Of a stretch of 64,000 bases of DNA, positions 15,413-60,803 are shown piece after piece. Made by a program: the position numbers and the translations under genes. Each line of letters opens with the position of its first letter. The stretch's first letter is position 1. The notes under the pieces are model-generated. The model was not told where the DNA came from, made no database searches, and saw only the letters and a list, made by a program, of their open reading frames with translations. The DNA is from a phage: the NCBI GenBank assembly GCA_012212665.1, contig GCA_012212665.1_4517.1; one strand, given 5' to 3'.

Positions 15413-15835
15413 TTATTTAAATTTAATTTTCTGAAGTGCATCAATTGCAGCCAAACGCCCTTGTTCACTTTTAACCGTAATGACCACATCACCTGATACG
15501 ATCACTGAACCATCAACAAATTCTATAGAGCCTTTTTTGAAATCGACAGCTGTATCTGATTCCGGAACTTCTTCAAAGAATTTAAATTCTGCACCATAAA
15601 TCAGAATATCACCTTGCATACTAATGATTGTACGTCCAGGTCCATCGGTTTCAGCGGCAATCATTGAAACACCGTAGCCAATCATCTCTTCTACAATAAA
15701 ATCTCTTGATAATAAAACTGTATGCAGAGTAGTGTTAAGACGTTTACCAGTTGTATTAAGAATTCTCAAGAAATTATCTTCTTGGCCTTTGATAATACGA
15801 TATTTCTTACCAACTTCAAAACCTTTAAAAGCCAT
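15413..15835 (-). CDS. Hypothetical protein
   Basis: ORF of 140 aa upstream of gene 39. Confidence 0.5.
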   Translation of the reverse strand: MAFKGFEVGKKYRIIKGQEDNFLRILNTTGKRLNTTLHTVLLSRDFIVEEMIGYGVSMIAAETDGPGRTIISMQGDILIYGAEFKFFEEVPESDTAVDFKKGSIEFVDGSVIVSGDVVITVKSEQGRLAAIDALQKIKFK

Positions 15836-16019: not shown

Positions 16020-16442
16020 TTATTCCTTAAAATGTGCTTTCAACATTTGATACAAAGACCATGCCTGGTCGTTATTTTCGATAGTAACTTTCATTACTGG
16101 GAATTCTGTGAAATCTTCTATCTGTTCTTGCTCTTCAGATGCTTGATACGGATTTCCCACTTCATCAAAAAACTCTGCTTCACTAGTAGAGAGCCAGATA
16201 AAGTTTTCATCAAGAATATCACCGCCTGTTGCGTATCCAACCATGCCAGTAGATGTCACAATTTTAGTAGGACGACCAAGATGGTCAACATCTAATACTT
16301 TAAATGGTTCCAGGCCAAGACGTCGCGCATAAATCCCATTATCAGTGTGGTCTTTAATAAACTCTTCTTGGGCACGTTTATCTTTAAATTTGTACCATGA
16401 GTTAACGCGGAATTTATTAGCCATTAGTAAGTTTCCTTCCAA
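16020..16442 (-). CDS. Hypothetical protein
   Basis: ORF of 140 aa. Confidence 0.5.
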
Positions 16443-16708: not shown

Positions 16709-17233
16709 TCATTTTAGCAAAATAAAATCAACTTGTTCTGCCAATGAACGTCTAAACATTAATTGACAACTTCCGAGGATGAAATCAGGTGCTTCATAGA
16801 CCGCGATGTAGTATCCTTTAGCTTTCAAGAGTTCAACATCTACCTGGTCATCAAACCATGCATAAACAGCGTCAACACTTTCAAATCCAAAATAGAACCC
16901 TTGAGCCCAATCTTCGTTCAATTCAAATGTGTGCTCAATTCTATAGTATCTTAAGATATTTTGTTCAAGGAGTTTGTCTTCATTTACTGTAGGACGATTA
17001 GGGACATTATAGTTGTCGCCGTGATGGTAGAAGTTACCTGAGAGTATTCCATGCTTATCAAGGAACTCCCATGTTTCTTCAGAGTTGTCGGTGCCTGACC
17101 AACCGTAAGGTGAGCGAGGTTCTTTATTCCAGGAGATTTCCCAAATTCTGACGGCTTTACCATCTTCGATAGCAACTCCTGGTAAAGATTCACGTTGGGT
17201 ACAAAAACTACGTTCTACGCGGTAAACTAACAT
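16709..17233 (-). CDS. Hypothetical protein
   Basis: ORF of 174 aa with AGAGGAG Shine-Dalgarno. Confidence 0.5.
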   Translation of the reverse strand: MLVYRVERSFCTQRESLPGVAIEDGKAVRIWEISWNKEPRSPYGWSGTDNSEETWEFLDKHGILSGNFYHHGDNYNVPNRPTVNEDKLLEQNILRYYRIEHTFELNEDWAQGFYFGFESVDAVYAWFDDQVDVELLKAKGYYIAVYEAPDFILGSCQLMFRRSLAEQVDFILLK

Positions 17234-17292: not shown

Positions 17293-17712
17293 TTATGCGA
17301 AAGCAGCTGGGCTATATTTTTTAATTTGGAATTCAGGAACTACCATGAACTGACCAGCGAAAACGATGTTATAAAGCTTAACACCATCTTCAACCCATTG
17401 GTCACTAATAAATCCGGCGATTTGCTTAGTTTTCCATGGCGTTCCATCAGTTGCCGCAGCAATAGTGAATTCATGGTCTTTTTCAACAGAAACTGATCTG
17501 CATAGTCCCCATTTGAACGCTTTTTCTTCTGGCTCAATGAACTGGCTTGAGACGTAGCCAATATTACCGTTAGCATCACGAACTTTAACTTGGTTACGAC
17601 CAAAAACCGGATCACTCACAGAAAGAACTTCAACCAACTTCCCGGCAACTTTAGAGCGAGAAGCAACAGATACATATACGTAATCACCTGTAGAGAGATT
17701 TACAATATTCAT
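17293..17712 (-). CDS. Hypothetical protein, member of a tandem paralogue family (shared C-terminal SDQWVEDG..LYNIVF motif)
   Basis: 139 aa; C-terminus GFISDQWVEDGVKLYNIVFAGQF.VV shared with the next two ORFs. Confidence 0.55.
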   Translation of the reverse strand: MNIVNLSTGDYVYVSVASRSKVAGKLVEVLSVSDPVFGRNQVKVRDANGNIGYVSSQFIEPEEKAFKWGLCRSVSVEKDHEFTIAAATDGTPWKTKQIAGFISDQWVEDGVKLYNIVFAGQFMVVPEFQIKKYSPAAFA

Positions 17713-17721
17713 AATAATTCC

Positions 17722-18207
17722 TTAAGCTTTACGAGGAGACACATAGCGAGTGATTTCAGATTCTTTAACAACTCGGAAGTCACCTAAGAATACGATATTG
17801 TATAACTTTTCACCATCTTCAACCCATTGGTCACTAATGAAGCCACACATAGTATCAGTTTTGTTTGGATAACCGTATTCATCGATGAAGTCAAATTCTT
17901 TATCAGTCTGGAATTCAACACCTTTACACAAGGCCCATTTGAACTGTGCATTAGGCTCTGTGGATTCAACTTTTTCTCTTGAAGCAAAAGCACCACTCAC
18001 AGGAGTTTCCAAGAACTTTGCACGAACATAAGCAAATTGGGTGTCCTGTGTCCCATGACTAGGAATAATACGAACTTTTACCTCAGAATCTTCATCTTTA
18101 ACGCCTTCTTTAAGTTGAATACTTACAACTTCGACCAATTTTCCTGCTGCTTTAGAACGAGATTTGTTAGATACGCGAACGATTTCACCAATAATACCAA
18201 GATTCAT
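17722..18207 (-). CDS. Hypothetical protein, tandem paralogue family member
   Basis: 161 aa; C-terminus GFISDQWVEDGEKLYNIVFLGDFRVV; N-terminal region also resembles the 17293..17712 product (KSRSKAAGKLVEV.S). Confidence 0.55.
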   Translation of the reverse strand: MNLGIIGEIVRVSNKSRSKAAGKLVEVVSIQLKEGVKDEDSEVKVRIIPSHGTQDTQFAYVRAKFLETPVSGAFASREKVESTEPNAQFKWALCKGVEFQTDKEFDFIDEYGYPNKTDTMCGFISDQWVEDGEKLYNIVFLGDFRVVKESEITRYVSPRKA

Positions 18208-18236
18208 AATTTTCTCTCTTTGTTTAAGTTGAATTC

Positions 18237-18266
18237 ATTATACTCCATCCGTCCTTGGATGTACAA
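18237..18266 (-). promoter_or_regulatory. Early promoter (variant of the TTATACTCCAACCATCCTTGGTTGTAAAC family)
   Basis: Minus strand TTGTAC-18 nt-TATAAT upstream of the 17722..18207 gene. Confidence 0.45.
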
Positions 18267-18268
18267 CA

Positions 18269-18763
18269 TTAATTAAGGATATTAACCACAGCACTACGTG
18301 GAACTACACTAAAATCACCTGCATGAACAACGTTCAGAAGTTCAACACCGTCTTCAATCCACTGGTCAGTTACCCATCCATTTACTGGACCTGCGAACGG
18401 GCGTCGAATTGAAACATATTTACACAACAAATCAGTAGGCTCAATAGGCTTAATCAGAGTACCGTACATACAAGCGATATCCATATCAATACAGATGTCT
18501 TTAACGGGTTCTACTTCTTCAATCAACAGTTCAAAGTCGGTGCTTGGAAGGGCGGTAGTAGAAATTGTACCATATGAATTTTTAATTTCTAAGAATAACC
18601 AAGGGCCTTCAGCTTGTTTGATGAAGTTAACAATAGTGAAACTATTGCCTTGAGTGGCACCTAAAATTTCACAAAACTTTTCGTAAGCTCGCACTGAAGC
18701 ACTGTACCAGTTGATTTGTTTTTCGTCTTTCAGGATGTAAGTAGCCGTAGTATTGATATTCAT
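18269..18763 (-). CDS. Hypothetical protein, divergent tandem paralogue family member
   Basis: 164 aa; C-terminus GWVTDQWIEDGVELLNVVHAGDFSVV. Confidence 0.5.
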   Translation of the reverse strand: MNINTTATYILKDEKQINWYSASVRAYEKFCEILGATQGNSFTIVNFIKQAEGPWLFLEIKNSYGTISTTALPSTDFELLIEEVEPVKDICIDMDIACMYGTLIKPIEPTDLLCKYVSIRRPFAGPVNGWVTDQWIEDGVELLNVVHAGDFSVVPRSAVVNILN

Positions 18764-18794: not shown

Positions 18795-18824
18795 ATTATA
18801 CTCCAACCATCCTTGGTTGTAAAC
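18795..18824 (-). promoter_or_regulatory. Early promoter (conserved family block)
   Basis: Minus strand GTTTAC-18 nt-TATAAT; 30-bp block nearly identical to 60774..60803 and 61794..61822. Confidence 0.55.
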
Positions 18825-18829
18825 TGATT

Positions 18830-19507
18830 TTATCGCTGTTTTACACTTATCGGGTCAGGATTCTCAGGGACATCTTCAAGGCCAAGCGCATAACGCTGAG
18901 CATATTTTAACATCAAAATATCTTTAGCACAATCATGAACACTATCATGGGCAACGAATCCTTTTAGCGTACCCATCGGTAATGGACACATACTTAATCC
19001 TCGTGTCAACGAGTAAGCTTCGATTGCCGTACGAATATCGCGTTGAGCCCAGAATTTAACCGGTTCTAATTTATCAGTATCAATATCTGGTTCAAGAACA
19101 CCTTCATCACGATAGAGATCACGAATCAAATCGACCAATATCGGGAAGTCAAAGCTCATACCACGGCACCACATCTGTGATTTCCATTGGTCAACTTTAT
19201 TAGCTCGACAATAATCTAAAAAGATTTTAATGCCTTCAAGCGTAGTGACATCGTCTTCAGACGGGGCCAGGTTTTTACGTGCTTCTGCCGATTGTTCTTT
19301 CCACCATTTCATAGTGGATTTAGCGAAAACTCGCTTCCCTTTTTGAGAAGCTAAATTAAATTTAATTCGCTTACCTCGTTGAACAAGTTCTTCGAATGAT
19401 TCAACAACTTCAGGGTCTGAATTATATGCAATAACCGCAAGGTCAATAACAGCCGCTTTTGATGTATTGCCGAATGTTTCAAAATCTATAATAACATCAG
19501 TGCTCAT
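18830..19507 (-). CDS. dexA: Exonuclease A (DexA), DEDD-type 3'-5' exonuclease
   Basis: 225 aa; N-terminal D.E motif (VIIDFETFG); T4 synteny with dda. Confidence 0.8.
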   Translation of the reverse strand: MSTDVIIDFETFGNTSKAAVIDLAVIAYNSDPEVVESFEELVQRGKRIKFNLASQKGKRVFAKSTMKWWKEQSAEARKNLAPSEDDVTTLEGIKIFLDYCRANKVDQWKSQMWCRGMSFDFPILVDLIRDLYRDEGVLEPDIDTDKLEPVKFWAQRDIRTAIEAYSLTRGLSMCPLPMGTLKGFVAHDSVHDCAKDILMLKYAQRYALGLEDVPENPDPISVKQR

Positions 19508-19516
19508 AATTTTCTC

Positions 19517-20830
19517 TCAAATAAAATGGACGTCAAAACGACCACGAGTTGTGCCGACATACAATAACTGTTTAGCTAATTCTGAATCAGCATAATGGAT
19601 ACACGGTGTATAAACAAAGGCCGTGTCAACAGACATACCCTGGGCCTTATGGAAGGTTGATACTGGTAGTGCCTTTACCTTAGTGAACATACGTTTAGCA
19701 TCCCAGAATTCACTCCATGGAGCTTTACCACCTTTATTCCAGAATTTGTATGTTTCTGCAGTCTTAGCCAAAAACAAATTGAATTTATAAAGCTCTTCTT
19801 CAGAAGAAATAACCTTTATATCCTCGCGGACATATTCTTCGTCATCCCCATATGTTTCTACTGTAAGATTCCAGTATCGTATCATATATTCGCCTGAAAC
19901 ACCACGCGCTTTAACGAATGTAGTCGTTTCTACAGCATCTCGAATACGAACGAATTGCCCGTTATTGAAAAGCATTTCAGTCATATTTTTGCCATCTAGC
20001 TTATACGTCTTGGTAAACGGCTCTTGTAGAACAATGACTTCATCTTTAATAAATGGCTTTTCTGTTTCGAGAAGTTTTCGGCGAATAATTGAATTTAACT
20101 TGTCCACCGACTTATTTGTGAATGCCATCATTCGATTTTCGAAAAGGTCTTCAGGAGTTTTAACGACATTAAAATAGTTCATCATATACGATTTAAGGTC
20201 TGTATATCCATGAACACCATGCCCGTCAACTACTTTATCATAAATCCATTTGCCATTACGAATATCGGTCGCAACATCAATAATTGGTGCATTGCTACGT
20301 TTAACTTCTGTAAGGTCGCATTGCACGAAGTCTTTGTGCGTGAAGAAAGGACTTAGATACGCAGTGGATTCGCCGGGGTCGACCGGACGAATCTGACATC
20401 GGTCACCGATTCCAATTACTGTACACCATTTAGGGATACTAGCTAACATTATTTTAAACAGAGAACGGTCACACATTGACGCTTCATCAAATAACAGTAC
20501 ACGACACAAGGCTAAGTCGGGAACCTTTTTCTGTTCAAATAATACGTTTTCTTCGTATGTAGTTGGGTTGATTTTAAGAATGCTATGAATAGTCGATGCT
20601 TCTTGACCCGCAAGTTTGCTTAGAACCTTTTTAGCAGCATGTGTAGGGGCTGCTAAAATAATACCTGATTCTCCGGCGGAAATAAGAGCTTCAACGATGA
20701 ATCTAGTAAGAGTTGTTTTACCTGTACCAGCAGGCCCGTTAATAGTTACGTGATGTTTCTTTTCTTTAATAGCTTTCATAACAACGTTGAAGGCGTTTTT
20801 CTGGCCTTCGGTCAAATCATCAAATGTCAT
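19517..20830 (-). CDS. dda: Dda DNA helicase (SF1B)
   Basis: 437 aa; Walker A GPAGTGKTT and SF1 motifs; matches the T4 Dda N-terminus. Confidence 0.9.
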   Translation of the reverse strand: MTFDDLTEGQKNAFNVVMKAIKEKKHHVTINGPAGTGKTTLTRFIVEALISAGESGIILAAPTHAAKKVLSKLAGQEASTIHSILKINPTTYEENVLFEQKKVPDLALCRVLLFDEASMCDRSLFKIMLASIPKWCTVIGIGDRCQIRPVDPGESTAYLSPFFTHKDFVQCDLTEVKRSNAPIIDVATDIRNGKWIYDKVVDGHGVHGYTDLKSYMMNYFNVVKTPEDLFENRMMAFTNKSVDKLNSIIRRKLLETEKPFIKDEVIVLQEPFTKTYKLDGKNMTEMLFNNGQFVRIRDAVETTTFVKARGVSGEYMIRYWNLTVETYGDDEEYVREDIKVISSEEELYKFNLFLAKTAETYKFWNKGGKAPWSEFWDAKRMFTKVKALPVSTFHKAQGMSVDTAFVYTPCIHYADSELAKQLLYVGTTRGRFDVHFI

Positions 20831-60773: not shown

Positions 60774-60803
60774 ATTATACTCCAACCATCCTTGGTTGTA
60801 AAC
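60774..60803 (-). promoter_or_regulatory. Early promoter (conserved family block)
   Basis: TTATACTCCAACCATCCTTGGTTGTAAAC on the forward strand, i.e. GTTTAC-18 nt-TATAAT on the minus strand; near-identical to 18795..18824. Confidence 0.55.

Follow-up and report, generated by a model that had tools for sequence, protein, structure and literature searches.

Three adjacent genes on the minus strand of a phage genome encode proteins of 139, 161 and 164 amino acids that end with a common motif, which raises the question of what these genes are and whether, as a first-pass annotation had proposed, they form a tandem triplication shaped by diversifying selection, of the kind found with host-takeover or anti-defence proteins. 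The genes lie in a window of 64,000 nucleotides, the whole stretch of DNA that was analysed, and all three open reading frames are present with exactly the annotated boundaries. The locus contains the following genes:

19517-20830: dda, upstream of the three-gene block
18830-19507: dexA, upstream of the three-gene block
18269-18763, minus strand: ORF164, 164 amino acids, a full-length MotB.1-type protein
17722-18207, minus strand: ORF161, 161 amino acids, MotB orthologue
17293-17712, minus strand: ORF139, 139 amino acids, second MotB paralogue ('MotB-like protein')
16709-17233, minus strand: ORF174, 174 amino acids, homologue of T4 motB.2 (phrog_1106), ~41% identical to T4 MotB.2
16020-16442, minus strand: goF-like paralogue 2 (phrog_622)
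15413-15835, minus strand: goF-like paralogue 1 (phrog_622)

The similarity between the three C-termini is far beyond chance. In BLASTP comparisons, ORF164 matched ORF161 with E = 3e-10 (16/36 residues identical) and ORF139 with E = 4e-11 (17/29 identical), whereas ORF139 and ORF161 matched over essentially their full length (E = 6e-30, 43% identity), which also confirms the N-terminal blocks that had been described for this pair. All three proteins scored above the gathering threshold (25 bits) of Pfam family PF17613 (MotB, modifier of transcription), with 181.5 bits for ORF161 (E = 1.4e-53, profile positions 5-157 of 162), 77.8 bits for ORF139 (1.1e-21) and 35.3 bits for ORF164 (1.3e-08), the latter by its C-terminal part only (residues 84-159). 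The similarity is visible at the DNA level as well, as a 92-nt direct repeat (family D1) in three copies with 74% and 62% identity, which covers the core of the shared domain:

17324-17415, minus strand: shared-domain core of ORF139, G-F-I-S-D-Q-W-V-E-D-G...L-Y-N-I-V-F...F-x-V-V (92-nt repeat D1)
17753-17844, minus strand: shared-domain core of ORF161 (92-nt repeat D1)
18288-18379, minus strand: shared-domain core of ORF164 (92-nt repeat D1)

When all six frames of the 64-kb window were searched with a domain profile, exactly these three copies were returned, with E = 7e-27 to 2e-33; the next match had E > 1, and this search found neither a fourth copy nor a 29-residue C-terminal-domain peptide of the RB69 type. 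ORF174 was considered as a fourth member, as MAFFT lined up its C-terminus, but the hhalign probability of 0.08% indicated that it is unrelated. The first-pass annotation was right about the shared similarity and too narrow about its extent, since the common unit is not a motif of ~30 residues but a whole domain of ~55 residues in ORF164 and ~70 in ORF161 and ORF139. It starts at a conserved L-C-(K/R)-x-V strand, carries an extra hairpin of ~15 residues in both MotB-type proteins, and has G, D, W, E, G, L, N, V and V as invariant residues among 24 diverse family members. The NCBIfam search gave no useful match, and among the PDB sequences there was no match to either the ORF161 sequence or the C-terminal-domain profile.

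To which phage type the locus belongs follows from its surroundings. Over the 5.2 kb around it, many phages of Escherichia and Shigella, for example PECP20, CAU_ECP01, phiE142 and Shf125875, show 96-98% identity. Close relatives that have this gene block are classed as Mosigvirus, a label that the identical proteins also carry in UniRef. The synteny, dda-dexA-[three genes]-motB.2-like-cef-goF, agrees with T4 and RB69-type phages. From these sequence comparisons, we assign the window to an RB69-type (Mosigvirus-like) T-even phage, and the three ORFs are the motB.1, motB and second motB early genes of an RB69-like T4-type phage. Neither the genes nor their arrangement are new: exact copies of all three proteins were already public in a database look-up, the three-gene block occurs in at least 155 phage records (with at least 80% of the query covered), and the gene family, its shared C-terminal domain and the multi-copy arrangement in RB69-type phages have been published (PMC7827196).

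The order of the genes differs between phages. It is dexA-motB.1-motB-motB'-motB.2-like-cef in the window phage and dexA-motB.2-motB.1-motB-cef in T4, and CAM-21 shows a third arrangement; therefore, the region is mosaic. The motB.2 homologue ORF174 lies downstream of the MotB genes here but between dexA and motB.1 in T4 and CAM-21, a shift that implies a local rearrangement. For the label 'transcriptional regulator' that some records give to this homologue we saw no basis. Further downstream, the two goF-like paralogues flank the 39.2 zinc-ribbon gene.

ORF161 corresponds to MotB itself. It matched phrog_1671 (3.4e-69), and its identity is 59% with T4 MotB and 76% with RB69 MotB. Its layout consists of a KOW/SH3-like N-terminal domain (residues 1-68), a disordered linker (69-87) and a C-terminal barrel of the long form (88-156). 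Several database entries have a longer N-terminus (175-182 amino acids), with a start upstream of the promoter-proximal ATG. ORF139 matched the same PHROG almost from end to end (2.9e-51, positions 2-166 of 166) and combines a KOW-like N-terminal domain with a long C-terminal domain and almost no linker. Both proteins contain the motif SRSK-x-AGKLVEV, and both have the full-length combination of a KOW-like N-terminal and a MotB C-terminal domain that characterizes MotB proper (Category 1 in the published classification, of which Categories 2 and 4 form the MotB.1 group; PMC7827196). The cluster of ORF139 has 205 member sequences and is named 'MotB-like protein' in Mosigvirus. In evolutionary terms, ORF139 is an old, second paralogue of MotB.

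ORF164 shares only the last domain with these two. It was assigned to the MotB.1 group by its match to phrog_2333 (1.3e-82) and by an alignment with T4 MotB.1 and 35 relatives, and it shows the combination typical of this group, a non-KOW N-terminal domain with the conserved C-terminal core GWVTDQWIEDGVELLNVVH. The protein is composed of an N-terminal barrel with an inserted helix (residues 1-85), a disordered linker with the motif DMDIACMYGTLIKPIEP (86-108) and the shared C-terminal barrel (109-164), which has the short form seen in MotB.1 relatives (GWVTDQWIEDGVELLNVVHAGDFSVVPRS). Since its N-terminal domain is unrelated to those of the other two proteins, the locus did not arise by simple tandem triplication; the proposed paralogy holds for the C-terminal domain. 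ORF164 is the product of a domain fusion or shuffle, and whole-gene paralogy is confined to ORF161 and ORF139. The N-terminal domain of MotB.1 has been placed in an LSm-like fold family together with GoF and Frd.2 of the Tevenvirinae (Kim et al. 2025, PMC12152347). The goF-like ORF at 15413-15835 showed a weak match to the N-terminal region of the MotB.1 PHROG (E = 0.0038), which is consistent with this published GoF/MotB.1/Frd.2 family.

The linker motif of ORF164, D-[MF]-D-[IV]-[AS]-x-M-Y-G-T-L-[IV]-K-P-[LI] (window positions 18440-18490, residues ~92-109), also occurs at the N-terminus of MotB.1-type proteins of 180 and 250 amino acids and in the linker of hybrids that join a KOW domain to a short C-terminal domain; proteins that carry it include P0037, P0043, P0032, P0096, P0065 and P0088. 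It gives the impression of a short linear motif that is mobile.

The MotB.1 protein of reference T4 differs from ORF164 in length. T4 motB.1 (NC_000866, 1700-2151, minus strand) encodes only 119 amino acids (13.8 kDa), and its product ends with GWVTDQWIGRWR at a stop codon within the shared motif (compare window positions 18269-18400). The early stop is caused by a one-base insertion, an extra G (GGATTGGAAGATGG). When this G is removed, a 143-amino-acid ORF results that is identical to P0011 (ADJ39729.1 and others; UniRef D9IE42_BPT4), and a cluster look-up placed the P0011 form on 256 contigs and the 119-amino-acid form on 2. An exact-pattern count of the frameshift allele in IMG/VR yielded zero matches for both patterns and is, therefore, uninformative. 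Alternatively, the extra G could be an error in the reference sequence. Deletion of T4 motB.1 gave no phenotype in laboratory conditions, although the T4 allele is truncated, and no effect of MotB.1 on RNA was found in the same study (PMC12152347). The published T4 experiments may have used a protein without most of the conserved C-terminal domain, and the results may thus understate what the intact protein does.

SH3-like barrels and OB folds differ in where a helix interrupts the strands: between strands 4 and 5 (a short helix) in the former, between strands 3 and 4 in the latter. For ORF161 and ORF164, models were computed with AF2 from family alignments, and each shows two small beta-barrels with a linker of low confidence between them (ORF161, model m69994aa34909: mean pLDDT 79.6, C-terminal domain > 90, low-confidence linker 71-86; ORF164, model m03a0b07656f8: mean pLDDT 78.6, linker 86-103 < 50), and the small N-terminal barrel of ORF161 is one of these. 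The C-terminal domain has five strands in both models. Because both models put the short helix between strands 4 and 5, and neither has one between strands 3 and 4, the domain models as an SH3/Tudor-like barrel and not as the OB fold (SCOPe b.40.4.5) that HHpred had predicted for the MotB C-terminal domain (PMC7827196). The shared module is the C-terminal half of PF17613, and the N-terminal barrel differs by protein: basic and KOW/SH3-like in ORF161 and ORF139, acidic and of the MotB.1 type (LSm-like according to the literature) in ORF164. The isoelectric points of the separate domains are:

ORF161: N-terminal domain 9.2, C-terminal domain 4.7
ORF139: N-terminal domain 8.1, C-terminal domain 6.8
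ORF164: N-terminal domain 4.6, C-terminal domain 4.9
T4 MotB: N-terminal domain 9.75, C-terminal domain 7.95

These values bear on the possibility that the shared barrel is itself an OB-fold or cold-shock-like domain that binds nucleic acid, by which all three proteins would bind DNA or RNA. We consider this doubtful: the published OB-fold prediction and the mildly basic C-terminal domain of T4 MotB (pI 7.95) are in line with it, but the AF2 models place the helix elsewhere, and ORF161 and ORF164 have acidic C-terminal domains with the invariant core D-x-W-x-E-x-G. As the conserved core (DQWxEDG) is acidic, a surface for protein contact or self-association is more likely than a DNA-binding surface, and charge and conservation together make DNA binding more plausible for the basic KOW-like N-terminal domain. 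A more elaborate version of this idea is that the shared barrel serves as a Tudor/SH3-like protein-contact module, for example with H-NS/StpA or with itself, that T-even phages freely combine with KOW-like heads for DNA or LSm-like heads for RNA, so that the paralogues deliver different cargos to one host target; in this full form we regard it as rather unlikely. The most economical reading of ORF139 and ORF164 is that they are sub-functionalised variants that use the shared C-terminal module.

Two sites resembling T4-type early promoters precede the genes:

18795-18824, minus strand: T4-type early promoter before ORF164, GTTTACA-N17-TATAAT, 11/12 consensus matches
18237-18265, minus strand: early-promoter-like site before ORF161, TGTACA-17-TATAAT, 10/12 consensus matches

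The window contains four exact GTTTAC..TATAAT pairs; 0.15 would be expected by chance. The ORF161 site lies in a stretch of 54 nt that has 76% identity with the upstream region of ORF164 (repeat family D3). The 30-nt early promoter of ORF164 (GTTTACAACCAAGGATGGTTGGAGTATAAT) has an exact second copy at 60774-60803 (minus strand), ~42 kb away. ORF139 starts 10 nt past the stop codon of ORF161 and has no promoter of its own, thus ORF161 and ORF139 are probably co-transcribed. These promoters, and the location between dexA and cef in a T-even genome, agree with what is known for MotB proper as an early gene.

Whether the genes are under diversifying selection was assessed by gene-wide, pairwise dN/dS values (Nei-Gojobori) against four related phages. 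These were 0.05-0.23 for ORF164, 0.07-0.18 for ORF139, and 0.23-0.37 for ORF161, apart from one ORF161 value of 0.82 that, at dS = 0.02, is noise. For comparison, dda gave 0.02-0.06, lower than the motB genes. Gene-wide pairwise values well below 1 indicate purifying selection with a somewhat relaxed constraint, and at this gene-wide level the diversifying selection suggested in the first-pass annotation is not seen. In the comparison with G2469 and moha, identity drops to 80% for ORF161, whereas neighbouring genes are 96-99% identical. Since dS is raised in parallel with this low identity, the divergence points to allele exchange by recombination rather than to positive selection.

Recombination is also apparent in the family at large. 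A search of 1.84 billion representatives with the C-terminal-domain profile gave 35 cluster matches, of which ~28 were genuine and all of these small two-domain proteins, so the shared module is narrowly distributed. The long matches in several stretches, among them P0275, were taken as spurious; they are Ig-like repeat proteins. In the shuffled architectures, a KOW N-terminal domain precedes either the long C-terminal domain or a short one of the MotB.1 type; others have LSm-like N-terminal domains that vary in length, or reach ~250 amino acids with duplicated N-terminal modules. The linker is the variable part across the family (50-66 extra alignment columns), and conservation within the MotB.1 group is highest in the C-terminal domain (majority-residue frequency 0.84). 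Family variation stems from domain shuffling, linker indels and allele exchange. That the locus evolves fast under diversifying selection as an anti-defence or host-range cassette, each paralogue acting against a different immunity or variant target, is very unlikely: the variable gene content and order of this dispensable early region (T4, CAM-21 and the window phage), the 80% identity of ORF161 where flanking genes are 98-99% identical, and the many recombined N-terminal domains, linkers and C-terminal domains would fit such a cassette, but the pairwise dN/dS of 0.05-0.37 and the parallel rise of dS in ORF161 speak for allele exchange, the shared domain is the part that changes least in the MotB.1 group, no PADLOC defence-related model matched (E <= 0.1), and the literature searched contained no anti-defence phenotype.

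MotB is said to be described in a 2021 NAR paper as a phage nucleoid-associated protein that compacts DNA. According to two other accounts (PMC6070864, PMC7827196), T4 MotB, an early protein, is toxic to E. coli. [quoted passage not shown] Together with the early promoters of ORF164 and ORF161, these properties agree with the proposed early host-takeover class. The function, which the first-pass annotation gave as unknown, is published for MotB of T4; for MotB.1 and the second MotB, that description stands.

Taken as a whole, the reading of the locus as an RB69-type motB.1/motB/second-motB early cluster, with two-barrel proteins and an ORF161 that works as T4 MotB does, is in our judgement very probably correct. 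The host RNA polymerase would transcribe the three genes from T4-type early promoters immediately after infection, with the ORF161 promoter driving the ORF161-ORF139 pair as one unit. From its homology to T4 MotB, ORF161 may coat DNA non-specifically, like a phage nucleoid-associated protein, and shift the placement of H-NS and StpA on DNA, which would modestly increase the burst size. ORF139 could provide a sub-functionalised variant of this activity, and ORF164 would join the shared C-terminal module to a different, possibly RNA-binding, N-terminal head. As a discovery the locus matters little, and the initial observation is real but ordinary. The small additions made here are the SH3/Tudor-like model, the confinement of the module to ~28 clusters, and the one-base insertion in T4 motB.1. 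When DNA contacts and H-NS contacts are mapped by mutation, the fold and the acidic conserved face can help to choose the domain, and phages with an intact MotB.1, like the window phage, are better suited than reference T4 for studies of MotB.1 function.

Several small proteins invite comparison. T7 gp5.5, T4 Arn and the archaeal proteins Sso7d and Cren7 are functional analogues that interfere with H-NS or bind DNA non-specifically, and Sso7d and Cren7 have an SH3-like barrel; no sequence relationship to them was detected when the C-terminal-domain profile was searched against PDB sequences. Within the LSm-like family, the ORF164 N-terminal domain represents the MotB.1 branch, and the shared MotB C-terminal domain, present in ORF164, is absent from GoF and Frd.2. 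T4 MotB.1 is 46% identical to ORF164 over 113 amino acids (the N-terminal domain), and its gene likewise lies directly upstream of motB, but ORF164 has the full length of 164 amino acids and the extra linker motif, as opposed to the 119 amino acids of the T4 protein.

T4 MotB (motB, NP_049626; PF17613) and ORF161 are built alike, from a KOW-like N-terminal domain, a linker and a C-terminal domain, and share the dexA-cef interval and an early promoter; ORF139 has this architecture too but is nearly linkerless, and MotB-type genes number two in tandem in the window phage against one in T4. The net charges also differ, -3 for ORF161 (pI 5.4) and 0 for ORF139 compared with +6 for T4 MotB (pI 9.2), so tight non-specific DNA binding may not carry over fully, and the T4 properties (DNA binding, H-NS/StpA copurification and toxicity) may hold only in part for ORF161 and ORF139. 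Patterson-West et al. (Viruses 2021, PMC7827196) described MotB and MotB.1 as proteins with a common conserved C-terminal domain and different N-terminal domains, of which one may have arisen by duplication of the other, and found both genes in 40 phages besides T4. RB69 has two motB genes and one motB.1 (PMC7827196), and an additional fourth C-terminal-domain peptide of 29 amino acids has been reported, which the six-frame search did not find in the window phage. Otherwise, the number and arrangement of the genes in the RB69/Mosigvirus motB locus equal those in the window phage.
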